From: a virus
Taxonomy: Duplodnaviria > Caudoviricetes
Length of the DNA stretch: 64,000 bases
Virus record (IMG/VR): IMGVR_UViG_3300037424_000224
Span: 10,662 to 74,661 of that record
Direction: 5' to 3' (one strand)
The stretch's first letter is position 1, and each line of letters starts with the position of its first letter. Below the pieces are notes generated by a model. That model searched no databases. It worked only from the letters and a program-made list of their open reading frames with translations, and was not told the origin of the DNA. The translations under genes were made by a program, and so were the position numbers. Positions 2,294-50,889 of this stretch are shown here, piece by piece.

Positions 2294-4076
2294 TCGGCAC
2301 AGTTTTAATCATAGATTCTCCGGCTCTAATCATACAATCTCGTACAATTTCTTCACCTCGTTCGGCAAATTCTTCTGGTACTTGACAAACTATTTCATCA
2401 TGAACTGCTATAATAATATTACCACCGACCTCTTTAAGTGCATCATAAAGATATACTTTAGCCAGCTTTGTCATATCAGCACTTGTACCTTGAATGGCAT
2501 GGTTGGCTCCCTCACGTTTAATTGAAGATAAAATCTGTTCAAAATCTTGATTACCAAAACTTGGTGTAGTAAAGTAGCGTCTACGTCCTAAAATAGTGGT
2601 CGCGTAACCATTAATTACTGCTTCGTTTCCTAATTCCTTTAGTTTAGCAGTTAAGATTGGATAGGCTGCATGAAAACCTTCTACAATAGTCCTGGCTTCT
2701 TTCATACTTACTTGAAACTTAGAAACTAAATTACTTGGGCCACTTCCATACAAACTTGCAAAATTAATATTTTTTGAAATTGTTCGCTCTCTACTATCTT
2801 TAGTAACTTCGTCATAGGGAATATGAAATACTTTAGAAGCTGTTAGTTTGTGCATATCCTTACCAGTTCTATAAGCTTCCAAGAATTCTGGTTCTTGACT
2901 CAGTTCAGTAGCAATTCTTAATTCTACTTGACTATAATCTGATTTAATTAATACACAATGTGGGTCTGCTATAAAAGCTAATCTATAATTAATATCTACA
3001 GATGGGTCTTTTGCTGGGTTGGGACATTGCTGAAGATTGGGTTGTTCACAGGATTCTCTGCCTGTGGCGGCTCCGATTTGATTAAATCCAGCATGAATCT
3101 TACCATCTTTTTGTACATAATCATCTATATAAGACTGACCAAAAGCACTTAATCTCTTACTTAATTTTCTATTTTTAAGAAGTGCCTCCACAACTGGGTG
3201 ATGAATATTAGATAAAGCCTCTGAGCCTGTACTATCTACTTTAATACCAAAAGTATTAAGCATTACTAAAACTTGCTGAATACTGTTTAGATTAATTTCA
3301 GTAGCCTCTATCTTTTCAATTACTGAAATTCCTTTCTTTTTACGGGGTACATCTAAAGTTCCGGCAGTAGATAACATTTCTCGTAGTTCTTTTTCCGCTT
3401 GTTTTTGACGTTTATTAGTAAGATCGTAGATTTTCATCCAGAGTTTCTGGTCAAATCCTACTCCTAATAATTCCATCTCTGCTAGAATTCTTACTAAAGG
3501 AAACTCTATATTGTACGCAATATTGGCTACGTCTTTCTTGATTAACTGTTCATAGATAAGTGGATAGAGTTTAAGTAGATAAATTACGTCATCTGCCGCA
3601 TAGTTTAGTTGTTGGTCAGTAAAGAATACAATTTCTTCTTGGAACTGATTTCTAATCTCTTTTACTAGATTTACATTCAGGTACTTAAAGGTTAAGTCAT
3701 TTAGAGAAGACATAATCTTACCAATTCCAGCAGTTAATAAGGATTCTGCTATCATGGTATCAAATACATATTCTGGAAGCCATCCATAGTTCTTTTTTAG
3801 AAACTTAATATCAAATTTTCCATTATGAAATAACCATCTAATATGTGAACTCAATCTGCTAAAAAACTCAGTCATGTCCAAAGCTCTAGCATCATAAATG
3901 TAAACTAAATCCTCAGATACGCCAATTTGTACTAAAAGTAATTGATTTTCAAGTGCATTTAGTCCATTAGTTTCAACATCTAATGCCATTACTTCTTTAA
4001 ATGGTTCAAAAGACTCTCTGTTGATTATTTCGAGTGACTTCCACATTTCTTCTTCAGTTGTTATATAATGCCACAC
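2253..4076 (-). CDS. polA: DNA polymerase family A (3'-5' exonuclease + polymerase, no 5' nuclease domain)
   Basis: Exo I ALDVET, HNGKFD, YAADD; motif A DYSQVELR, motif B SKNINFASLYG, motif C VHDEIV. Confidence 0.97.
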   Translation of the reverse strand: MWHYITTEEEMWKSLEIINRESFEPFKEVMALDVETNGLNALENQLLLVQIGVSEDLVYIYDARALDMTEFFSRLSSHIRWLFHNGKFDIKFLKKNYGWLPEYVFDTMIAESLLTAGIGKIMSSLNDLTFKYLNVNLVKEIRNQFQEEIVFFTDQQLNYAADDVIYLLKLYPLIYEQLIKKDVANIAYNIEFPLVRILAEMELLGVGFDQKLWMKIYDLTNKRQKQAEKELREMLSTAGTLDVPRKKKGISVIEKIEATEINLNSIQQVLVMLNTFGIKVDSTGSEALSNIHHPVVEALLKNRKLSKRLSAFGQSYIDDYVQKDGKIHAGFNQIGAATGRESCEQPNLQQCPNPAKDPSVDINYRLAFIADPHCVLIKSDYSQVELRIATELSQEPEFLEAYRTGKDMHKLTASKVFHIPYDEVTKDSRERTISKNINFASLYGSGPSNLVSKFQVSMKEARTIVEGFHAAYPILTAKLKELGNEAVINGYATTILGRRRYFTTPSFGNQDFEQILSSIKREGANHAIQGTSADMTKLAKVYLYDALKEVGGNIIIAVHDEIVCQVPEEFAERGEEIVRDCMIRAGESMIKTVPIEVDVLCGKSWGG

Positions 4077-29885: not shown

Positions 29886-30617
29886 ATGAGTAAACAAGAT
29901 CAACTTACTAAGCTGTTTTCGTGGAGTGCAGAACTTACAATTAAAGATCAAAATAACGAAGAAGTTATGAAAGTCTACCAGAGAGTTGTAGGAGACTATG
30001 ACCTTCAAACAGCGCGTAAAGCCGCGCTTAGATATACTAATCAACTTAGATGTAAAGTCTCGGACGAAAAAAGTGATGATTACCAAGTATATGTAGCTCC
30101 AGTATTGGTTTTATCTAGGGAGGAACAAGAAACTTTAGCTTTATATGACTCTATTTTGGAAGTACAAAAAGAAGCAGAAAAGCTCACCAAGATTCCTGAA
30201 CCTAAAGAACCAGAAGGAGATGCCCCAACAGTTGAGTATGAGAAGTACGTAGAACTGGATGATAGTTATGAAGATAGGTATATGAAACTACTTAATGAGA
30301 ATACTCAAAAGTTACTAAATAAAAAGAAAGAAGAACTAAAGGCACTCAGTGAACAAGAATTAAAAGATATAGCTATTCAAACTAGAATAGAAGGTCTGTG
30401 TGAAAATGAACTAAAGTCTAAGTTCTTTGAATACTGTGTTTATTTAGGTACCTACGAAGATAAAGCCTTTAAGACTAGACTTTATTATAATTTTGATGAT
30501 TTTGGTAATATACCCGAATTTTTAAAGATGCAGCTAATGAAAGGTTATGCTGACTTGGAGATGACGGCTATAAGTTTAAAAGAATCCCGAAGAACGGAAC
30601 CTTCCGTGCAAGTGTAA
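29886..30617 (+). CDS. Tail assembly chaperone (gpG-like)
   Basis: Between tail tube and tape measure; carries a slippery site. Confidence 0.75.
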   Translation: MSKQDQLTKLFSWSAELTIKDQNNEEVMKVYQRVVGDYDLQTARKAALRYTNQLRCKVSDEKSDDYQVYVAPVLVLSREEQETLALYDSILEVQKEAEKLTKIPEPKEPEGDAPTVEYEKYVELDDSYEDRYMKLLNENTQKLLNKKKEELKALSEQELKDIAIQTRIEGLCENELKSKFFEYCVYLGTYEDKAFKTRLYYNFDDFGNIPEFLKMQLMKGYADLEMTAISLKESRRTEPSVQV

Positions 30618-30862
30618 GTTTATCTGAAAAGTCTGGTAGACCCTTAGATAGAAGTTTACTATATGTAAGAGATTTTCCCTATACTATTAGTTACTGTATA
30701 AAGAAATCTTATCAGATTGAAAGTTTCTTTGAACTTCCAAAGGATAAACGACCACCAGAGGATATTTGGGATGATGCAGAAGAACTAGAAATCTGGCTAG
30801 ATAATATGTACAGTAATGAACCTAACTCGTTAGAAATAGATATTAACGACATTGAGGGATGA
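29886..30862 (+). CDS. Tail assembly chaperone -1 frameshift product (gpGT-like)
   Basis: T TTA AAA heptamer at 30575-30581; the -1 frame stays open (KRIPKNGTF...ELPKDKRPPEDIWDD...DIEG) to TGA 30860-62, which overlaps the TMP ATG. Confidence 0.8.
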
Positions 30863-33800
30863 TGGCACGAACTAAAGAAGAATTACAAGGATTAATTACA
30901 GTCCTTAAAGAATTAAACATAGCAGTTGGTGGTAATTTAGAGACTAATATAGAAAAAGCCAATGCAGCCATAGGCAAAATTGGTTCTGGAAAAACGTCTG
31001 GTTACGAGGACATAATACAGGCTTTTAAGAGTATTAAAACAGAGATTAAAGGTCTTGAGAATGTCAACCCGGAAGGAATTCATAGAGTTAATACTGCTCT
31101 AGCTGAGACTCTTAGATTAACTGGTGAACTAGAGCGAGCTAAAAAAGCTGCTTCAAATTTAACTGCCGCAGAAGGTAGACAGTTAAATGCCTTACAAAAT
31201 CCAGCAACTCCAGCCGCAGTATCCCAAAGATTAGCAAATGAAGCAAGAATCAGTGAGGAACGTAATCGTTGGTTTAATCCTGAATCTACTTCTGATGGTC
31301 TAGCTCCCGCTAAATTAGTTAGAGGCGCTAGAACTGAGATGGAATCTAACCTTGCCAATAGACCAGAAGCCCTAGCTGCAGTCGAAGCTACCAAAGCTTC
31401 AAAAACTAAGGCCGAATCTGATATTAAAGTGTCAGCACAACTAAATGAACTTTCTACTGCTATTCAGCAGGATAAAGCAGCTTCTATTAGGTCTGCTGAA
31501 ACTAAAGATAAAGCGACTTTAAATGCTACTCAACAAGGTCTACTACAAGCAGAAATTACTAAACGGCAAGGTGAAATAGCGGCTCAAAAAGCTTCTGATG
31601 CTAAGTTACGTTCCGAAGGGGAGATGTACTATAATAATCCCCAAACTGCCGGAGTAGGAATTAATAGACCAGAATCTATTTATGGACAGGCAGGACAGGC
31701 CGCTTCTGCTACTGAGAAAGGTAATGATTTAGCTCGTAAAGCTGAAATATCTGCCAAAGAAACAGTTGCAGATTTAGAGCAACAAAAACTTCTACAACAA
31801 GAAATAAATAAAATTCTTGAACGTAGGGCAGATGAGAAGCAACAACCTCTACTAGAATCTGAGATTGCTAAACGTCAAGCACAATTAAATCCTGTCAAAC
31901 CAGTAGATACTCCTCTTGATCCACAAGCAGCAGCTTTAAAGGCTTTTGGTGATAACCAGAGCAAACTAGACTCGTTTAATGAAAAAATAGGTAAAATGGG
32001 ATTCGGCCTTGAAAATATGACTAGAATCTCTAAAGATGCCGCAACTGGTATTACTACTATGTCAGGCAGTATTAAAAATGCTCAGGGTGTAACTGAAGAA
32101 TTAACCGTGCATGTTGACCGTTTTGGCAATGTAGTACAAAGTAGCTCTAATAACTTTAAATCCTTCGGGGACGTTCTAGCTAATAACGTCAAGAAAATGC
32201 TTGAATGGGTTATTGCCGGTGGATTAATCTTTGGAGCTTTAAGTAAGTTAAAAGAAGTTTTTGGTAATATGAAAGAACTTCAAAATCTACTTAATGATAT
32301 TACAATTACTACTGGACAAACTGGTGAAGCTTTAAGAAGTACGTTTGATTCAGTAGTTGGAATTGCAGATATTGTTGGTGTCAGTGCTATTGAAAGCTTA
32401 AAGGCTATGAATTATGCCTTAAAGATTACCGGGGATAGCGCCAGCTCAGTTGAAAGAACTGCTAGAGCAACTCAATTATTAACTGCCTCACTTACTCTGG
32501 CTAAACTAGGTGCTATACCAGTTACCGAGGCTATGGATACTTTAGTAGCAGCTTTGGAACAGTCTGGTAAAGGTTTTGATTATGCAAATAAGTTACTAGA
32601 TAGCTTTCAGGCAGTATCTAAGATTTCAGGTGGTTCTATTGACGATTTAGCTACAACCTTCGGTATTGCCGCAGGTTCGGCCATTGATGTTGGATTGGAA
32701 GTAGACCAGTTAAATGGCGTTATTGGCGCTTTCGCGGCAGCTACTACTAAGAGTGCTGAAGAAACTGGTAATGCTCTAAAGGTTATGTTTTCCAACTATC
32801 AAACAGATAGTGCTGAAAAATCACTATCTAAATATGGTATTGCAGTAAGAGATTTTACTACCGGTGCGGCTAAACCATTCATGGATGTCATGAATGAAAT
32901 CTACGCCAAGAAAGAGGCAGGATTAATCTCACCAGCAGGAATGTCCGAAATCACTAATGCAATTGGTGGTGGGCCACGTAGAGCTCCTGATGTTACTGCC
33001 TTAGTTAATGTCATGGGTAAAGTACCTGCCATTGAAGAAATTTCTAAATTAGCAAAAGGTGATGCTGTCGCAGCTTTAGCCATTAAACAAAAAACATTAG
33101 AAACTGCTACAGAACAATTAAATAACGCTTTTCTAAAGTTGTCAAACACTTTAGGAGATAGTGGTGGATTCGTTGAACTAATGACTACAGGAGTTAAGTT
33201 TGCAACTGCTTTTGCAGAAGCTATTAACGATATTACCAAGATGTTGGGGCCAATGACATCAGCACTTGCTGGATTGGCTGCATTGGGAATTGGTAATAAA
33301 TTATTTGGTAATCAGGCTAGAGAAATGCTAGGTGGATTGTCCAGATCGCTTGGGGCACAAACTCCTGAAAGTTTAGGATCAAAAGTTTCTGCTGCTGGTG
33401 GAATTGTACCGGAAATGGTACAATCTGGTAAAGGTGCTTCTGATGGTTTTGTGTCTGGAGTTAAAGGTTTCTTCTCTAATGGATTTGGAGCCGCAATTAC
33501 ACCTGTAATAGGCTTATCTCTAATGGAAGCTATGCAGGGCAATTATGCACAAGCAGGAGCTTCAGCCATTGCTGGTGGTATAATGGCGGGATTAACTAAG
33601 TCCTCTGGATGGGCTTCAATAGCTGCTATACTAGCCTCTGTAATAGTTTCAGAAGTGCAGTCTTTAATTGATATGGTTAATAAAGGAAGTGAAGCTAGTA
33701 CGGCTGGAATTCAAACTTATGAGGAGTACAAAAAGAAAAATCCAAATGCTACTGCCGACGAGTGGCAACAAACCATGCGTCAAAGAACACAGGATATAGT

Positions 33801-35844
33801 TGGAGATTCTACGAGATTCGGTACTAAACAAGATCAAATATTATCTGGCTTGGACAATCTACAAAGATATGATCTAGCCGTTAAACAAAAAGAATATCTA
33901 CAAAAGAATGGTTATGGAGAAGACCTGGATAAAATGGTCTCTCAGGGGAAGAGTGGAGATTTACTTGGGTATAATGAATCTCTAGGGAAACTTACTAAAG
34001 TAATTAATGAAGCGGGACTAGGCGTAGGAAGTCAACCAGAGTCTCAAAATTATTTAACTAGATACTTAGTTCCTCAAATGATAATTACTGCTAAGAACTT
34101 TGGTGATATTAGTACAGTTGCTAAAGGCTTGGAAGCTGGTTTTTCGGACTTAAACAAAGTAGTAGAACAATCTACTGATACCCAAAATAATAAGTTATCT
34201 AGTCAGGTCGCTTTTAATAGTGCTTTTGAAGGTGAAGGTACATTCAAGCAGAATCAATTAAAAACTAATTTAATGATGCAGTATGGTCAACCAGGAAGTA
34301 ATGTAAATACATCAGCTAAGTTTAATCAAATTATCGGACAGGGAGAAACTGCTAAAACAACTGTTCCACAGATTCTATCTGCCTTACACCCAGATGTTAA
34401 AGACATAGAAAACGCCAAAGAATATTCAGATAAATACAATGAATTATTTAATATCATGTCTAGAGCACCAGAAGATAGATCTTCTGAAATTGTAAATTTA
34501 GCTAATGCCTATAATGATATTAATATTGCCATTAAAGAAGGTAAAGTAGCGGAGAAAGATTTATCAGCGGAAAGAGAAAAATTAGGTATTTATAAACAGC
34601 AATTAGAAATAAACTTACAACTAGCTGCTGTAGAATCCGCCAAGTCACAAGTAGTTTATCCAGGCTTTACTGACTATAAAGATTTAACTAAACAGCAAGT
34701 TTTAGCAGGTGCCAAGTCCGCCGAAAGGTTACAGGATTATACCGTTAAAGAAATGGGTATAGACCCAGATTTATTTAAACAAAGCTTAGATGACATTTAT
34801 GTAATGACTAAGGATGGTCTAATTAAAGTTAAAGGTCTAAGTAAAGACTTCTTTTCCCCGGCTATTGATGGTATTAAAGATATGAAAAAGAGTCTAGAAG
34901 ATGCTTTTAACTTCCAGAATCTAAGACAATATCCACAAGAAATGGCCGGTAGAATTCAAAAGGCCATGAACTATTATCAGAACTTATTAAAGCAATATGG
35001 ACTAAATGAGAAGATTGAAAAGATGACTTTCTTATTTAAGGATAATCAGGTATCACAGCTAGTCGGCTCGCAAACAGCACTTCAACTAGCATTACAAGAT
35101 TTAACTGAAGTAGAAAAGAAACAATTAGATGGTGTTTATAACCTACCTTCTGGAGCTACGGCTTATATACCATTACAATCTGGACAAGCATTGGCTAATA
35201 ATACTGCTAATAATGTTGGTGCAGCTCCTTTTGATTATGGTGATTTAAAAACTCCTGCACTAACTCCATTAGTTAATCCATTAGACCAAATAGTAATGAA
35301 CACCGGTCAAATAGCAGCAAATACAAATACTTTTTCAAGTTCAAATGATCCTAGAGCTAATACAGGAAAAGGGCCGCTTGCACCGGAGAAGAAACCTCTC
35401 TGGGAAGGCTACGGAGAGAAAAAGATTGGCCCATTTGAAGGTACAGATAAAGGTACAGAGGCACCATGGAAACCAACATCTGAGGCAGATTTAATACGAG
35501 AAAGCATTATAAATGGAACTCCGTATAAAAACGATAAACCATTCGGCGGTGCATTTGAACCACTTACTAAGCCAATTAATGACCTAATGAAGCTATTTGG
35601 ACTTAATAAAGGTACAGCAGGAACTGATGCTTCTATGGGCGGAGGAAAGGCCCTAGCTTCTCCTGCTAAGATAGATATTACTGTTAAGCCTGAAAAAGTT
35701 ACTAATGATCTAAATGCTCACCTAGTCATACAATTAGATGGAAGAGTCGTAGCTAATGTAATTAAGAAATACATTTTTGAAGACTATCAGAGACTAACTG
35801 CATCGGTTGGAAAAGATAGTAGAAGTAGGCCGGGAGTATTATAA
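30859..35844 (+). CDS. Tape measure protein (TP901-type core)
   Basis: 1661 aa, Ala/Gly-rich helical; DDLATTFGIAAGSAIDVGLEVDQLNGVIGAF...GNALKVMFS core. Confidence 0.92.
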   Translation: MMARTKEELQGLITVLKELNIAVGGNLETNIEKANAAIGKIGSGKTSGYEDIIQAFKSIKTEIKGLENVNPEGIHRVNTALAETLRLTGELERAKKAASNLTAAEGRQLNALQNPATPAAVSQRLANEARISEERNRWFNPESTSDGLAPAKLVRGARTEMESNLANRPEALAAVEATKASKTKAESDIKVSAQLNELSTAIQQDKAASIRSAETKDKATLNATQQGLLQAEITKRQGEIAAQKASDAKLRSEGEMYYNNPQTAGVGINRPESIYGQAGQAASATEKGNDLARKAEISAKETVADLEQQKLLQQEINKILERRADEKQQPLLESEIAKRQAQLNPVKPVDTPLDPQAAALKAFGDNQSKLDSFNEKIGKMGFGLENMTRISKDAATGITTMSGSIKNAQGVTEELTVHVDRFGNVVQSSSNNFKSFGDVLANNVKKMLEWVIAGGLIFGALSKLKEVFGNMKELQNLLNDITITTGQTGEALRSTFDSVVGIADIVGVSAIESLKAMNYALKITGDSASSVERTARATQLLTASLTLAKLGAIPVTEAMDTLVAALEQSGKGFDYANKLLDSFQAVSKISGGSIDDLATTFGIAAGSAIDVGLEVDQLNGVIGAFAAATTKSAEETGNALKVMFSNYQTDSAEKSLSKYGIAVRDFTTGAAKPFMDVMNEIYAKKEAGLISPAGMSEITNAIGGGPRRAPDVTALVNVMGKVPAIEEISKLAKGDAVAALAIKQKTLETATEQLNNAFLKLSNTLGDSGGFVELMTTGVKFATAFAEAINDITKMLGPMTSALAGLAALGIGNKLFGNQAREMLGGLSRSLGAQTPESLGSKVSAAGGIVPEMVQSGKGASDGFVSGVKGFFSNGFGAAITPVIGLSLMEAMQGNYAQAGASAIAGGIMAGLTKSSGWASIAAILASVIVSEVQSLIDMVNKGSEASTAGIQTYEEYKKKNPNATADEWQQTMRQRTQDIVGDSTRFGTKQDQILSGLDNLQRYDLAVKQKEYLQKNGYGEDLDKMVSQGKSGDLLGYNESLGKLTKVINEAGLGVGSQPESQNYLTRYLVPQMIITAKNFGDISTVAKGLEAGFSDLNKVVEQSTDTQNNKLSSQVAFNSAFEGEGTFKQNQLKTNLMMQYGQPGSNVNTSAKFNQIIGQGETAKTTVPQILSALHPDVKDIENAKEYSDKYNELFNIMSRAPEDRSSEIVNLANAYNDINIAIKEGKVAEKDLSAEREKLGIYKQQLEINLQLAAVESAKSQVVYPGFTDYKDLTKQQVLAGAKSAERLQDYTVKEMGIDPDLFKQSLDDIYVMTKDGLIKVKGLSKDFFSPAIDGIKDMKKSLEDAFNFQNLRQYPQEMAGRIQKAMNYYQNLLKQYGLNEKIEKMTFLFKDNQVSQLVGSQTALQLALQDLTEVEKKQLDGVYNLPSGATAYIPLQSGQALANNTANNVGAAPFDYGDLKTPALTPLVNPLDQIVMNTGQIAANTNTFSSSNDPRANTGKGPLAPEKKPLWEGYGEKKIGPFEGTDKGTEAPWKPTSEADLIRESIINGTPYKNDKPFGGAFEPLTKPINDLMKLFGLNKGTAGTDASMGGGKALASPAKIDITVKPEKVTNDLNAHLVIQLDGRVVANVIKKYIFEDYQRLTASVGKDSRSRPGVL

Positions 35845-46583: not shown

Positions 46584-48030
46584 TTAATGTATTTGGTTTT
46601 GGAGACCCGGAAAGATGGATAGTTATATTTTTTATATCTTTATCCTTGTATTTCTTGTGGTCTAATAAAAGATTATATGATAAACGAACAAAAATATTAC
46701 TATCTATACCACGAATATATTTAATAATATATGAAATAGCAATTATTATAGATTTATATAATTTGTCTAACTCAGTAAGTAATTTATTCAAAACAGGATA
46801 TGGTGGAGTGATCGGTATTTTATTACTCTTTGCAGTAGAAGTATACGTTAGATTGGTAAGCAAAAAGTATGGTCGCCAATAATTATGGATTTTTTAAATA
46901 GTATTCAGTGGGGAAATGTATTTACTGCCGTAACTTTAATTACTACTGCTTTCTTAGCATGGAGTGATGTTAGTAAGAGACGAGCAGAAAAACGAGCAAA
47001 AGACTCTGAATCCCACAAAATTGAAACAGACGCCGCAGACGTGATTACCGAATCAGCATTAAAACTATTAACTCCTAAAGACAAACAAATTGAACAGCAA
47101 GATTTACAAATAACAAGACTACTTGCTGAAAATCAACAACTATCTAATAAGTTTAATATTCTTGAATCTTCGACAAATAACTTGATTAAACGAGTTAGTG
47201 ATTTAGAAAACGTTAATAATGAATTAATTAAACAAAGTGAAGAATGGAAAACTGAACGTAAAGAATGGGAGCTTGGTATTGGTAAACTATTAAGCCAATT
47301 AGTTAAGGCTAAAATAGCCCCAGTTTGGCTACCACAAGGAATTACTATATCTGAGATTGAATTAGAGCCTAAATTAGTAATTTCAGGATTTGGTTCTAAG
47401 AAGGTGAACAAATGATAGAATTAATGTCGGGAGTTTTATTTGGAATTGCTGCTCATCAAACGGATAGAATAGTTAAAAATTGGCCTCATCAATGGGAATA
47501 TTTAAGTAGATATGGAATTGGATATTTAACTTGTGGATTTACCTTTGTTTTAATTATAAAAAAATTAAATCCAGGTATAATTAAAGATGCTATTTTAGCA
47601 TTTGGAGGGGCAGGATTCTCTACAGGTCTAGGAGTTTTAATTGCTAGATTGTACGACGAGTATATAAAGTGAGGTAAATATGGTAGAAGATAAAATAAGC
47701 CTAAAAGAGTATGTTGACCTAAAAATTGGAGCAATTGATAAAGCAACCTCAGTAGCGTATGCCAGCATGGAAAAACGCCTTGAGGGTATGAATGAATTTA
47801 GAAATCAATTAAAAGACCAAAATATAACCTTCATAACCAAGGCTGAATATTCAGCCCACATGAATAAAATAGAAGAAGACATTAGAATTCTTAGAGAGTC
47901 CAAAGCTCAATTAGAAGGTAAAGCTTCACAATCAGACGTAAATTCACTAAGATTAATTTCTTATATCAGTTTGGCTATAGGGCTTAGTGGGTTACTTATA
48001 ACGTTGATTAAATTATTAGGAGTAGTATGA
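46580..48030 (+). CDS. Four consecutive small membrane proteins (46580-46882, 46885-47415, 47412-47672, 47680-48030): holin/antiholin/spanin-like candidates
   Basis: TM segments; two have TM + coiled coil; directly after the lysin. Confidence 0.55.
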
Positions 48031-48503
48031 CAAAATTAAATGTACCAGATGCAAATACAGGCAAATTTCTGGAAATAGATTTAGATAATCCTGCTGGTAG
48101 TTATTATGTTACAGACGTTAATACCGGTAAACTAAGATTAATTGATTTAACCAATAATACCGGCAGTTATTATGTTAATGATGCAAATACTGGAAAAGAT
48201 GTATTAATTGATTTGGCTAATTTATCAGGAAGTATTTATACTAGAGATGAAAACACAGGTAAGTTAGTTTTAATTAATTTAGCATCTCCTAGTGGAAGTT
48301 ATTATGTAACTGACCCTAATACCGGTAAATTAGTATTAGTAGATGCCTCTAAATGTATAGTATTAAATAATGGCGGCCTGCGCTCCGGCGTGAGCGTGGG
48401 TGGCGGGGGCGAGCCTGCTACTGTTGGCGACTTCCTGCTGATGGAAGATGGATCGTTTCTACTGCTCGAATCCGGCGATCAAATTCTACTGGAGAGTAAC
48501 TAA
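48027..48503 (+). CDS. Protein with five 22-aa tandem repeats fused to an LLxEDG-type tail motif
   Basis: VxDxNTGKxxxIDLxNxxGSYY x5, then GGG linker and DFLLMEDGSFLLLESGDQILLES. Confidence 0.7.
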   Translation: MTKLNVPDANTGKFLEIDLDNPAGSYYVTDVNTGKLRLIDLTNNTGSYYVNDANTGKDVLIDLANLSGSIYTRDENTGKLVLINLASPSGSYYVTDPNTGKLVLVDASKCIVLNNGGLRSGVSVGGGGEPATVGDFLLMEDGSFLLLESGDQILLESN

Positions 48504-49396
48504 TGGCTAATTCAAAAGTTTCAGCACTAACGGCGGCGACTGTGATCAACGATACTGATTTGTTCTACCTCAGTCAGGGAGGCGCAGACCGCAAGGTACC
48601 CGCTTCGCTTCTCAATGGGTTGGGGCGCTACGCAAACGTCGTTGTCGTTGACAGCGGCGGGGCGGGGGATTACACCACGCTGGCGGCGGCGCTGGCGGCG
48701 ATCACGGATGCCAGTGCGACTAATCGATATGGCATCATCGTCATGCCAGGAGTCTACAATGTATCCGCCGCTTTTGACATCTGCAAGGAAGGGGTCGATA
48801 TATGTGCGCTTATACCAGGGACAGTTGTCCTTACCGGTAGTGTGTCGATTAGACTTGGCTATAGCACAGGTTCAGTGTCGAGGTCTTTGATCTCTGGGAT
48901 CAAATTTATTAACGTTGGGAATAACACCAGCTGGGCTATCTCGTGTAGCGCAAACAATTCATTTAATGCAAAACTTCACCTGTGTGAGTTCAGAAAATCA
49001 ATTGGAAGTGGCGGCCCGGTTGATGTTGGTGGTGATGCAGCAAGCCTACTTGAATTTAACGGTTGTGTGATGGCGCACGACGAGGTAACTGATGCTGCCG
49101 CTCGTTTTGCAGTCCGAGTTGGACTTGCAACAGACGTGATGGCACGGATCATTGATTGTGATCTCATTGCGGTATCGACACATGTAGATTCTGCGTGCCT
49201 ATACGACAATCTGGGAGGAATTGAATTACCGTTGTCGGTACTTCAGTCACGACTGAAGTGCTCTGCAAACATGGTGCGCAGTGCTGGAGACGTCTCCATT
49301 TTCGGAATTGCATTGTGCATGTTGCAAACAAGTACATTCGTGCAATTCACGAACAGGGTAGTCGCGCCAGGGAACGTTGTTGATGCGGGTTTTTAA
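48503..49396 (+). CDS. Tail fibre/spike protein with pectinesterase-like beta-helix start
   Basis: MANSKVSALTAAT N-terminal attachment motif; VVVDSGGAGDYTTLAAALAAI. Confidence 0.7.
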   Translation: MANSKVSALTAATVINDTDLFYLSQGGADRKVPASLLNGLGRYANVVVVDSGGAGDYTTLAAALAAITDASATNRYGIIVMPGVYNVSAAFDICKEGVDICALIPGTVVLTGSVSIRLGYSTGSVSRSLISGIKFINVGNNTSWAISCSANNSFNAKLHLCEFRKSIGSGGPVDVGGDAASLLEFNGCVMAHDEVTDAAARFAVRVGLATDVMARIIDCDLIAVSTHVDSACLYDNLGGIELPLSVLQSRLKCSANMVRSAGDVSIFGIALCMLQTSTFVQFTNRVVAPGNVVDAGF

Positions 49397-50379
49397 CCGA
49401 TGGCACGCCAAGTGCAACCGCGTATGCGTGGTCATCGGATAGCGTATTGCGCGGACAGTTTGAAAGCGAAACGTCGCAAGACGCCAATTCCGATTTTGGC
49501 GCGTGGGTGATGCAGCCGGTGGGAGATGATCTGCTGATCGGGTTGAGCAACTTTCCAGCAGATACTAACGGTGCGCTGGTCACTCGGACAACAGACGGTA
49601 GTACCTTTACAATCGAGCGTGTGCTTGACGAGCAAGGCGTTCACGACATGCAGATGGTGGGCGATCGGCTCTTTGTCCCCGGAACTGACCCGACCGACGA
49701 CTGGACGCTCGGAAATCTCTATGAGCGCAGCGCGTTGGGCATTTGGACAAAACGCCGCACCATGCCGAATGTGTTGCACTCATTTGGCTTGTGGCATGAC
49801 GGGACGAATTTGTTTGTGGCAACCGGTGCGCACACCGGAGACAATGCAACGTGGCGCGGTAAGGTGCTGAGTTCGGTTGACGATGGTGCGACGTGGGCTG
49901 CACAGGTGGATGTCAACAGTTATCGGATACTGGACGCGATCGGACACGGCGCGAAACTCTACGCGATTGGCTATGACTGGACAGGCACGCAGTACACGCA
50001 GGATTTGCATGTGAGCGCCGACGGCGGTGCGACGTGGAGCAAAGTGGCAGGCGTCACGCCGGTCAAGCGACCGAGGATGATCGCGCTCGGCACATCACTG
50101 CTGGTAGCAGGAAGCAGCACGCTCTATCAGATCGACGCCAGTCACGCAGTCACGACGCATAGTCTCCCGTTCACGGTTCCAGACCTATACAACGTCATGG
50201 TAACGGATGGGTCAAGTGTCTATGTGATTGATTCAAGCGGTTACGTGTGGCGCTCTTCTGATCTAAGCAACTGGACACGCTACACCTATGTCGCCAACGC
50301 GATTTCGCTGTGCTGGTGGGCCGGGGTGGGGTTGATGATCGCGGACGCGGGGCTGAATGCACGAATCTGGAAGGCGTAA
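49384..50379 (+). CDS. Asp-box beta-propeller domain, probably expressed as a -1 frameshift extension of 48503
   Basis: Open frame from 49384 with no ATG near its 5' end; SSVDDGATW, VSADGGATW, RSSDLSNW Asp-boxes. Confidence 0.7.
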   Translation, partial: CGFLTDGTPSATAYAWSSDSVLRGQFESETSQDANSDFGAWVMQPVGDDLLIGLSNFPADTNGALVTRTTDGSTFTIERVLDEQGVHDMQMVGDRLFVPGTDPTDDWTLGNLYERSALGIWTKRRTMPNVLHSFGLWHDGTNLFVATGAHTGDNATWRGKVLSSVDDGATWAAQVDVNSYRILDAIGHGAKLYAIGYDWTGTQYTQDLHVSADGGATWSKVAGVTPVKRPRMIALGTSLLVAGSSTLYQIDASHAVTTHSLPFTVPDLYNVMVTDGSSVYVIDSSGYVWRSSDLSNWTRYTYVANAISLCWWAGVGLMIADAGLNARIWKA

Positions 50380-50472
50380 GGCCAGCTAATGGCGTTTAGG
50401 CGCACTAAATGGGCAGTTCAAGTAATGGTTCTTACCGAATCAGGATTGTTCCAGAGGTGGTGGTCTGATTAA

Positions 50473-50889
50473 ATGAAAATAAAAACCCAACCTAATAATT
50501 ATAGTTGCGGTATTTATAGTATAATAAACTCCCTGATAGTCTTTGGTGATAGTAAAACTCCAGAAGAAGTCGGGGAGTTTACTTCTACCACTAAAGAAGG
50601 AACAGATACACCGGGAATTTATAATGCTCTAGATAATTTAGGTTACAAGTATAAAGTCTATAAAACAAGAAATAAAAATAATGCTTGGAGATTGGTCTTA
50701 ACTAACTCCATAAACTATCCCCTAATACTCTATTTAGATAAAGATCATTGGGCAGTTATCACAGGAAGAATAAAAAACAAAGTAATTCTAATAGATAGCT
50801 TCGATACAGCTCATATAGACAATAAACAAGAATTATTAGCAAGATGGAGTAACTTTGGTAACTTCTTAGGGATTAAGGTAAGCTTTTAA
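50473..50889 (+). CDS. Peptidase C39-like cysteine protease
   Basis: QPNNYSCG, GTDTPGI, DHWAVI, LIDS (Q-C-H-D). Confidence 0.8.
   Translation: MKIKTQPNNYSCGIYSIINSLIVFGDSKTPEEVGEFTSTTKEGTDTPGIYNALDNLGYKYKVYKTRNKNNAWRLVLTNSINYPLILYLDKDHWAVITGRIKNKVILIDSFDTAHIDNKQELLARWSNFGNFLGIKVSF

Follow-up and report, generated by a model that had tools for sequence, protein, structure and literature searches.

How is a long reading frame translated when it lies one base out of register with the end of a spike-like phage gene and carries no start codon near its own 5' end? The question arises at a junction in the window, a 64,000-nt stretch of an uncultured phage represented by an IMG/VR contig. There the upstream ORF (48503-49396) closes with the codons GCG GGT TTT TAA, its stop at 49394-49396, and the -1 frame, interrupted by TGA at 49381-49383, is open from 49384 to 50379, a run of 331 codons (Table 1). 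An initial annotation of the locus, made from the letters alone, proposed a programmed -1 frameshift fusing a tail fibre to a beta-propeller. It noted that the ORF ends GGT TTT TAA with an X XXY YYZ heptamer directly before the stop, and both are present in the sequence. The two products that it predicted, 297 aa and about 625 aa, agree with our arithmetic (297 + 328 = 625). Its statement that the propeller ORF has neither ATG nor ribosome-binding site near its 5' end was borne out by inspection of start codons and Shine-Dalgarno sequences: no ATG, GTG, TTG, CTG or ATN codon occurs between 49384 and the TTG at 49447, and no usable Shine-Dalgarno was found before this TTG or before the ATG at 49510. 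From the comparison of homologous loci described below, we consider it probable that the cassette is a two-part receptor-binding gene, which would give a 297-aa major product and, when tRNA-Phe makes a programmed -1 slip on reaching the stop codon, a 625-aa minor one.

Table 1. Coordinates of the spike-propeller cassette and its junction within the window.
Feature	Position	Strand	Description
GC-rich island	48350..50420		45-60% GC by composition profile, in a phage of ~30% GC; carries the whole cassette
Upstream ORF	48503..49396	+	297 aa; N-terminal anchor segment and predicted right-handed beta-helix, tail spike/depolymerase-like; ends Phe-stop (ORF listing)
X XXY YYZ heptamer G GGT TTT	49387..49393	+	Window copy only; homologous loci have TCT TTT or ACT TTT
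Shifty stop core T TTT TAA	49390..49396	+	Five-T run and stop; -1 frame reads TTT TTA; core is T TTT TAG in L004/L005, L006 and L009
-1 frame ORF	49393..50379	+	328 codons from the slip; predicted Asp-box (BNR-like) beta-propeller
Hairpin	49397..49438	+	Predicted fold, -20.5 kcal/mol; starts directly after the stop codon
Conserved N-terminal segment of propeller	49414..49473	+	Motif A-x-A-W-S...L-R-x-x-F-E in propeller and fusion alignments; its beginning precedes every possible start
TTG for conserved Leu	49447..49449	+	First possible -1-frame start and candidate internal start of a separate propeller; no Shine-Dalgarno in the window

The two ORFs encode domains of different kinds. The AF2 model of the upstream ORF (pLDDT 68) shows periodic strands, and Foldseek places pectin methylesterases at the top of its matches (E 5e-6, TM 0.5-0.6), followed by PL6 lyases and phage tailspikes. 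The Pfam Pectinesterase family gives a weak score of 15 bits, below its cut-off of 27. As modelled, the upstream product looks like an N-terminal anchor followed by a beta-helix resembling a tail spike or depolymerase. The downstream frame is modelled as an all-beta propeller (pLDDT 96.7) with Asp-box-like motifs visible in its sequence. Its Foldseek matches are generic propellers (Kelch, GH74, sialidase and Ycf48, at a TM of only 0.5-0.58), and its Pfam matches all fall below threshold (BNR with 21 bits against a cut-off of 27, BNR_2 with 17 against 31, and DUF6242). Propeller homologues are numerous, with 47 of near-full length and 665 HMMER hits; on the strength of these, the 331 open codons and the model confidence, the downstream frame is under selection.

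After a slip the -1 frame would read F-L-T-D-G-T-P-S-A-T-A-Y-A-W into the conserved N-terminal segment, which is modelled with a beta-bridge at residues 11-12 and a helix at residues 18-27 (pLDDT 97). The gene call for the window propeller begins at the ATG at 49510 and loses 39 conserved residues. Since no start codon comes before it, either in the window or in the homologous locus L006, the N-terminal segment does not appear to be separately initiable. Elsewhere in the operon, genes are preceded by GAGG-type sites or begin at overlapping stop-start junctions; the propeller has neither.

The heptamer does not by itself single out this junction. In-frame X XXY YYZ heptamers number 72 in the 18,589 codons of the window (3.9 per 1000); about 0.3 of the 76 window ORFs would be expected to end in one, and exactly one does. 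A terminal heptamer alone is therefore not beyond chance. What makes the junction significant is where the heptamer sits, together with the 331-codon frame that lacks a start and the conservation in homologues.

Neither ORF had a megablast or tblastn match among 50,697 phage records, PHROGs gave none for either ORF and Rfam none for 49000-49800, and scans of genome contigs for homologous loci found nothing. IMG/VR scans with the propeller and the propeller alignments added one other contig only (L009, L013, L040). The -1 class with DNA comprises just four loci (the window, L004/L005, L006 and L009), all metagenomic, and the propellers of the other -1 loci are about 50% identical to that of the window. 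These four divergent loci share one layout: an upstream gene ending N-T TTT TA(A/G), a propeller or linker in the -1 frame that reads F-L, and a hairpin after the stop. The initial annotation had relied on the heptamer as the signal, but X XXY YYZ is not kept in homologues, where the junction reads T TCT TTT or A ACT TTT. What is kept is T TTT TA(A/G). The wobble base of the codon before TTT is T in 4/4 loci, and the tRNA on the slip codon would re-pair perfectly in each (N-T TTT, UUU to UUU on the -1 shift). The first -1 codon is always TTA, although TTA makes up only 3-10% of the Leu codons in these genes, and the codon directly 3' of the slip codon is a stop (TAA in the window, TAG in L004/L005, L006 and L009). 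The conserved signal thus appears to be a T TTT TA(A/G) shifty stop of the type in which a P-site tRNA-Phe slips, rather than a tandem X XXY YYZ site. Accordingly, the proposal of a programmed -1 frameshift between spike and propeller gains support from the recurrent layout, the start-less conserved segment and the in-frame fusions described next, while its tandem heptamer is given up as the signal.

The end of the upstream gene is also visible in proteins. The upstream homologues P0002 and P0003 have the same terminal residue as the 297-aa ORF, and a C-terminal Phe is found in at least 7 distinct upstream homologues whose tails are otherwise dissimilar. A scan of IMG/VR with the upstream-family alignment returned 30 loci that are uninformative on the junction site, because nearly all are long single-ORF spikes (535-1026 aa) without recoding at their ends.

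In other relatives the same two domains are joined in different ways. In L003 and L007 one in-frame TGA sits precisely on the boundary between the domains (TGA CTG and TGA CTA), following a homologous upstream gene in L003 and a different one in L007. Stop-codon reassignment in these contigs was considered and rejected, since TGA ends other genes and other adjacent same-frame ORF pairs are ordinary gene boundaries. P0092 (613 aa) carries the same GDYTT-motif N-terminal domain, linker and propeller as one uninterrupted frame, and P0026, P0061, P0067, P0074 and L008 have the propeller fused to other N-terminal parts. In-frame fusions count in favour of the frameshift reading, and so does the TGA at the same boundary, a putative equivalent recoding solution.

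In L009 the -1 frame ends at a TGA that overlaps the propeller ATG, and this ATG is preceded by a GAGG site. No start codon occurs in the -1 linker of L009, which shares 13/16 residues with the P0045 N-terminus, with the two propellers only 47% identical overall; judged by this similarity, the linker seems to be still coding.

A stem had been annotated as starting at 49397, and a hairpin is indeed predicted there (49397-49438). It is not more stable than dinucleotide shuffles (z -0.8 to -1.3), and none of the individual hairpins of the -1 loci is (z -0.8 to -1.7). Ranked against 48-nt windows across both ORFs, the hairpin is within the most stable 1.7%, and post-stop stability in the four -1 loci falls in the top 1.7%, 11%, 13% and 0.5% of windows. 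The hairpin starts 0-2 nt past the stop in all four, and in the RNAalifold consensus 3 of the 11 pairs show compensatory changes. The two TGA loci (L003 and L007) lack a comparable post-stop structure. Classical -1 signals place a spacer of 5-9 nt between heptamer and structure; the stem in the window is closer, only 3 nt from the heptamer.

Under the frameshift reading, most ribosomes would stop at TAA (49394-49396) and release the 297-aa protein. With a slowly decoded stop in the A site, the peptidyl-tRNA-Phe on UUU (49391-49393) would, in a fraction of ribosomes, move back one base onto UUU at 49390-49392. In the window copy only, a tandem slip on G GGU UUU would also be possible. The A site would then present UUA (Leu), and the ribosome would read on in the -1 frame, across a short linker and then the 328-residue Asp-box propeller, to give the 625-aa fusion. 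The hairpin probably promotes this backward movement or delays termination. We infer that slippage takes place at an efficiency that leaves the fusion the minor of two isoforms made at a fixed ratio, and that both enter virions, which would carry mostly short subunits and a minority with a distal propeller, presumably a glycan-binding or glycan-cleaving tip. Bypassing of the gene-60 type, from UUU to a downstream UUU, was rejected because the linker that it would skip is conserved as protein and present in in-frame fusions.

The main alternative is that two separate proteins are made without any fusion: the propeller would start at TTG 49447 (the Leu of L-R-G-Q-F-E), perhaps by termination-coupled initiation with the hairpin bringing stop and TTG close together, and would bind the spike non-covalently. 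The codon for this conserved Leu is TTG in all four -1 loci and CTG in both TGA loci (TTG accounts for 26-32% of Leu codons), and L006 has GGAG 6 nt upstream of it; these two observations make a separate start possible. Gene callers begin P0015, P0017, P0019, P0020, P0025 and P0034 at the TTG position, and the hairpin ends 8-11 nt short of the TTG. In L004/L005 a -1-frame GTG precedes the junction and could serve as a start. There is also a large propeller subfamily with its own ATG (N-termini MT-A/T-AT..FGAY, at least 13 clusters), so the propeller can be made free, without its first ~30 residues. But separate initiation leaves unexplained the constant N-T TTT TAR and Phe end of the upstream gene, the coding, conserved and start-less segment before the TTG in the window, L006 and L009, and the in-frame TGA or absence of any stop at the same boundary in relatives. 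Moreover, TTG 49447 has no Shine-Dalgarno, a start there would remove the beta-bridge and the first helix residue that are confidently modelled, and the TTG of L009 opens merely a 10-codon frame. On balance we regard a separately made propeller as unlikely.

The frameshift reading could also belong to a broader scheme, which we offer as a decidedly speculative one. A sub-stoichiometric propeller tip might be obtained by four interchangeable routes: a -1 shifty stop with hairpin, UGA readthrough, fusion, and a split form in L009 and perhaps in all of the M-T-(A/T)-A-T subfamily. In the split form the frameshift would give the spike no more than a tag of ~24 residues, which would supply the missing N-terminal strand and helix of the propeller and dock the separate propeller by fragment complementation, with synthesis of both proteins coupled by termination-reinitiation.

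Could the window copy instead be an artefact or a dead gene, with six T miscounted as five, or a non-functional cassette left by transfer or chimeric assembly into an AT-rich phage? With one additional T the sequence would encode precisely this 625-aa protein, the contig was assembled from a metagenome, and the cassette stands out as GC-rich within an AT-rich genome, which makes both its activity in this genome and the correctness of the assembly uncertain. The homologous loci themselves have 55-61% GC. Against an artefact, the same stop and the same residue occur in independent divergent contigs and proteins, so the short product is ancestral and not an error. Long intact ORFs elsewhere on the contig (up to 1661 aa) argue for a low error rate, the downstream frame is intact over all its codons, and both borders of the island lie inside one contig, the left one crossed by an ORF. 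An error or a dead copy is therefore very improbable. A change at the RNA level, with the polymerase stuttering on the T run and adding one U to some transcripts, would put a homopolymer exactly at the junction to use and restore the frame with one added base, but it is barely credible, because the run has only five T, productive transcriptional slippage in bacteria and phages uses runs of about 7-9 or more, and the stop right after TTT, the 3' hairpin and the TGA-readthrough equivalents would go unexplained.

A -1 slip at the stop has its closest parallels in known C-terminal extensions of phage structural proteins. Shifty stops give +1 extensions in the lactococcal 936-group MTP-TpeX at CCC.UAG, with Bacillus phage SPP1 gp17.1* named as a further case (PMC4759559), and in the tsh gene of Listeria phages PSA/A118/A500 at CCC_UGA (PMC5009743). 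Like these, the window would combine a slip of the last sense codon with a stop in the A site, in a late structural operon gene, and a short major product with a longer minor one that has the same N-terminus and a C-terminal binding domain. In the known cases tRNA-Pro slips +1 on CCC, and major tail or capsid proteins thereby gain Ig-like or carbohydrate-binding modules, whereas the window would use a -1 slip of tRNA-Phe on U UUU in a spike/fibre-type protein, with a 3' hairpin and a 328-residue propeller.

The T7 gene 10 slip site is G GUU UUC. Capsid extensions by -1 frameshift are described for T7/T3 gene 10A/10B and Lactobacillus phage A2, and extensions in different phages are reached by +1, -1 or in-frame decoding (PMC5009743). 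The window resembles the T7/T3 and A2 systems in that a -1 slip late in a structural gene would give two virion proteins, and in its U-rich site, and the interchangeability of decoding modes is also seen in its family. It differs in that those systems concern the capsid and internal tandem sites, whereas the window would extend a receptor-binding spike by a terminal-codon slip at the stop, adding a large enzyme- or lectin-like propeller. The Q-beta coat protein is extended by UGA readthrough to the A1 protein. L003 and L007 resemble A1 in that one in-frame TGA separates a structural protein from the domain that extends its C-terminus, and the extended product would be minor if the codon is read through; Q-beta is an RNA phage whose extension is not a propeller, and the window has a frame change instead of readthrough. 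Ribosomal frameshifting also makes the CP-delta fusion of Orsay virus (PMC7565637). As in that system, frameshifting would equip a structural protein with a fibre or host-recognition module, and the fusion would be incorporated in a minor amount, but Orsay virus is a eukaryotic RNA virus that fuses the module to its capsid protein, and its fold is unrelated.

Among phage structural genes, those for tail chaperones, capsid proteins and major tail proteins provide well-documented cases of recoding. In the literature searched we found no case of recoding of a spike- or fibre-type receptor-binding protein, and the available portion of a 2016 frameshifting review makes no mention of tail fibres or tailspikes. 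The cassette would extend the known recoded C-terminal extensions of phage structural proteins to a new variant. If the frameshift is real, gene callers systematically mis-annotate such cassettes, and a minority of spikes could carry an extra glycan-binding or -cleaving tip at a ratio fixed by RNA, which bears on host-range prediction and receptor-binding protein engineering. The family would then be a natural experiment in which the same problem is solved by -1 frameshift, UGA readthrough, fusion and splitting, and the cassette would be apparently mobile between phages of very different GC content, recoding signal included.

Another -1 shift of phage tail modules, that of the tail assembly chaperone G/GT, was reportedly described by Xu, Hendrix and Duda in 2004. 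The window junction would resemble G/GT in that a tail-module gene has a conserved -1 slip close to its end, in a fixed short/long ratio, and in T-run motifs. A GTTTTT slippery motif has been reported for G/GT (PMC12846349). G/GT is flanked by the major tail and tape-measure genes, and its products are absent from the virion; the window junction lies elsewhere. The tape-measure gene of the window is at 30859-35844, with the junction 13 kb downstream in the distal fibre/spike region, and a separate G/GT-like overlap at 30554-30617 has its own candidate site, T TTA AAA at 30575-30581.

The window lies on an IMG/VR virus contig of 74.6 kb, and its late operon is of the siphovirus type, encoding terminase, tape-measure and distal tail proteins together with an 810-aa protein that carries a peptidase domain of the M23 type and also matches glycosyl hydrolases weakly. 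The sequence and the ORF listing bear out the layout described in the initial annotation, an upstream ORF with a terminal slippery heptamer and a long open -1 frame that encodes a beta-propeller. After a -1 slip the frame would read F-L-T-D-G-T-P-S-A-T-A-Y-A-W, as had been predicted. The propeller frame was also said to lack an ATG or ribosome-binding site near its 5' end, and we agree: its earliest ATG, GTG or TTG is TTG 49447, the next is ATG 49510, and no Shine-Dalgarno sequence was found before either. For genes neighbouring the propeller, either a GAGG-type site is present or the start overlaps the preceding stop. The heptamer by itself is not beyond chance. In-frame X XXY YYZ heptamers are frequent in the AT-rich window (3.9 per 1000 codons), and one of 76 ORFs, the upstream ORF, ends in one versus ~0.3 expected.

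Features of the junction in the window and at related metagenomic loci (L-numbers)
Feature	Position	Sequence	Detail
Tape-measure protein	30859-35844		1661 aa
Upstream ORF	48503-49396	GCG GGT TTT TAA (3' end)	297 aa
Heptamer	49387-49393	G GGT TTT	
-1 frame	open 49384 to 50379		331 codons; TGA at 49381-49383
Predicted hairpin	49397-49438		-20.5 kcal/mol
L004/L005 upstream gene 3' end		TCT TTT TAG	propeller frame -1, reads F-L
L006 upstream gene 3' end		ACT TTT TAG	propeller frame -1, reads F-L
L009 upstream gene 3' end		ACT TTT TAG	linker frame -1, reads F-L
In-frame TGA, L003	1123-1125	TGA CTG	
In-frame TGA, L007	2195-2197	TGA CTA	

We compared the DNA of seven related loci, a small metagenomic set in which L004/L005 is one locus in two samples. 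The four loci with a -1 junction, the window included, share the element N-T TTT TA(A/G), with T at the preceding wobble position (4/4), then TTT for Phe and either TAA or TAG as the stop. Of the heptamer, whose conservation had been put forward as a check, the T TTT TAR core is thus kept in 4/4 -1 loci and the full X XXY YYZ occurs in the window only. Because of this element the first -1 codon is TTA, which accounts for only 3-10% of Leu codons in genes of these loci. The homologous proteins P0002 (50% identical to the upstream protein) and P0003 stop at the same residue, ending ...D-T-G-F and ...D-A-N-L, respectively, and a profile search for further upstream homologues gave eight proteins with a Phe end and at least seven different C-terminal tails. 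The junction break is old and conserved and the short product ancestral.

At L009 (IMGVR_UViG_3300007072_000063) three frames are in use within 80 nt (2930-3010). After T TTT TAG comes a -1 linker of 24 codons that lacks a start codon; its TGA overlaps the propeller ATG in the third frame (CCATGA), and a GAGG site lies 7 nt upstream of that ATG. Between this linker and the N-terminus of the homologous protein P0045, 13/16 residues are identical, and the two propellers are just 47% identical. Since the start-less linker would be translatable solely via a -1 slip, it lends independent support to slippage at the T TTT TAG motif. The layout suggests a frameshift-added docking tag with termination-reinitiation, or a recent 1-nt deletion.

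The stem that the initial annotation placed after the stop is indeed predicted, but it is no better than dinucleotide shuffles. A hairpin is predicted in 4/4 -1 loci, with its 5' arm starting 0-2 nt past the stop and its 3' arm over the Trp-Ser codons, and RNAalifold on the four loci gave 11 consensus pairs, three with compensatory changes (G-C and A-U swapped between window/L004 and L006). Ranked for stability against every 48-nt window across the two ORFs of the locus concerned, the 48 nt after the stop fall in the most stable 1.7% in the window and 11%, 13% and 0.5% at the other -1 loci; the same ranking at two loci with an in-frame TGA showed no unusual structure (85% and 43%). Fisher's method on the four -1 ranks, with independence assumed, gives roughly 6e-4. 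These results are suggestive of a position-specific hairpin in the -1 loci (n = 4 sequences), although its spacing is closer than in classical -1 signals.

A programmed -1 slip at the stop is, in our judgement, the probable explanation. UUU (Phe) in the P site with UAA or UAG in the A site would slow termination; UAG, the stop in three of the four -1 loci, is read by RF1 alone. The peptidyl-tRNA-Phe could re-pair perfectly one base back, and decoding of UUA would then allow the propeller to be made. UUA is probably common among the codons of the AT-rich recipient phage, and slippage might be more efficient there as a result.

Separate initiation of the propeller at TTG 49447 seems to us unlikely. 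The TTG is kept in 4/4 -1 loci and is CTG in both TGA loci, GGAG lies upstream of it in L006, and free propellers clearly exist, but such a start does not account for the conservation of T TTT TAR with a terminal Phe, for the conserved linker that lacks a start codon, in L009 above all, or for the equivalent TGA and fusion junctions of relatives. The fusion and a separately started propeller could be made side by side. It is improbable that this copy is a dead gene or reflects an assembly error or a chimeric assembly, the short product being ancestral, and transcriptional slippage, hardly to be expected on a run of five T, is very improbable.

At L003 and L007 the upstream ORF and propeller share one frame, separated by a single TGA. 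The L003 upstream gene carries the GDYTT motif of the upstream protein, and no start codon follows its TGA for about 50 codons; the L007 upstream gene differs and carries an Lcl_C domain. The L003-type pair is also found as proteins P0206 and P0024, each with a longest listed contig of 23 kb. A reassigned genetic code on the L003 and L007 contigs was ruled out because TGA ends other genes and other same-frame neighbours are ordinary gene boundaries. Both TGAs, which lie exactly at the border between an upstream fibre gene and the propeller domain, are candidates for programmed UGA readthrough in a DNA phage. P0092 (613 aa) has a GDYTT-motif domain, the same linker and the propeller in a single frame, while P0026, P0061, P0067, P0074 and L008 have the propeller fused behind other N-terminal parts. 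A propeller subfamily with its own ATG comprises at least 13 clusters, with N-termini M-T-(A/T)-A-T..F-G-A-Y; the L009 propeller, with its GAGG site, starts in this way.

The upstream protein has a disordered or anchor-like N-terminus, with 26 residues common to another viral contig, a strongly conserved motif (N-V-V-V-V-D-x-G-G-x-G-D-Y-T-T-L-A-A-A-L-A-A-I-T-D-A-S) and, after it, a repeat region rich in strands. It is a predicted right-handed beta-helix, because Foldseek groups its AF2 model (pLDDT 68) with pectin methylesterases, PL6 lyases and phage tailspikes. The 158-aa ORF at 48027-48503 contains five repeats of ~22 residues (D-x-N-T-G-K...Y-Y-V) and stands as a gene of its own in the window; P0006 and P0007 have its repeat domain and the beta-helix spike domain fused in one reading frame, and the C-terminal L-L-x-E-D-G-type motif of this domain recurs just upstream of the L002 spike gene. 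P0206, P0208 and P0209 (longest listed contig of each, 23,047 bp) are paralogous fibre proteins that share one ~45-residue N-terminal anchor and differ in their distal parts, one having pentapeptide repeats. They look like a set of several fibres, with P0206 the only paralogue to precede the propeller.

The downstream protein is modelled by AF2 as a beta-propeller (pLDDT 96.7) with Asp-box-like motifs; Foldseek found generic propellers only (TM 0.5-0.58), and Pfam BNR-type matches were below gathering cut-offs. The motif A-x-A-W-(S/T)-x-x-x-x-L-(R/K)-x-x-F-E precedes the first blade in all fusions and many stand-alone homologues. In the window's propeller model a beta-bridge involves residues 11-12, and a helix spans residues 18-27 (pLDDT 97). 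The linker is part of the propeller domain, and in the window and L006 it lies upstream of every start codon; the database gene call for the window's propeller starts at ATG 49510 and misses 39 conserved residues.

The cassette formed by the two genes (~48350-50420) looks like a recently imported receptor-binding module, because it is 45-60% GC in a ~30% GC phage and the contigs of all homologous loci are 55-61% GC. The GC-rich island starts inside the 158-aa ORF and stops just past the propeller stop codon; a doubly chimeric assembly is a less likely origin than recent import. Directly past the cassette, at the late operon end, 50473-50889 encodes a protein of 138 aa that has a Peptidase_C39 domain on its own (E 1.7e-13), which is not what usually accompanies a receptor-binding module.

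The proposed slip would mirror, in the -1 direction, the CCC-stop '+1 shifty stops' known from the tsh genes of Listeria phages, from SPP1 gp17.1* and from lactococcal MTP-TpeX (PMC4759559, PMC5009743). Among the backward-slip motifs compiled from annotated phage frameshifts is a run of five identical bases (PMC10885494). For phage capsid and major tail proteins, C-terminal extensions through +1 frameshift, -1 frameshift or in-frame decoding are known, mainly with Ig-like domains, and the interchangeability of the three routes is already discussed (PMC5009743). In the accessible portions of the literature searched on recoded phage structural proteins, we found no spike- or fibre-type receptor-binding case, none adding a propeller, and no U UUU UAR site acting as a -1 shifty stop next to a conserved hairpin. 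Elsewhere in the window, two ORFs overlap, one at 29886-30617 and one in its -1 frame at 30554-30862; the second ends where the tape-measure gene starts. A PHROGs search matched neither ORF; a perfect T TTA AAA heptamer (30575-30581) lies within the overlap (30554-30617), which is likely the canonical tail-assembly-chaperone frameshift, as assigned by position only.
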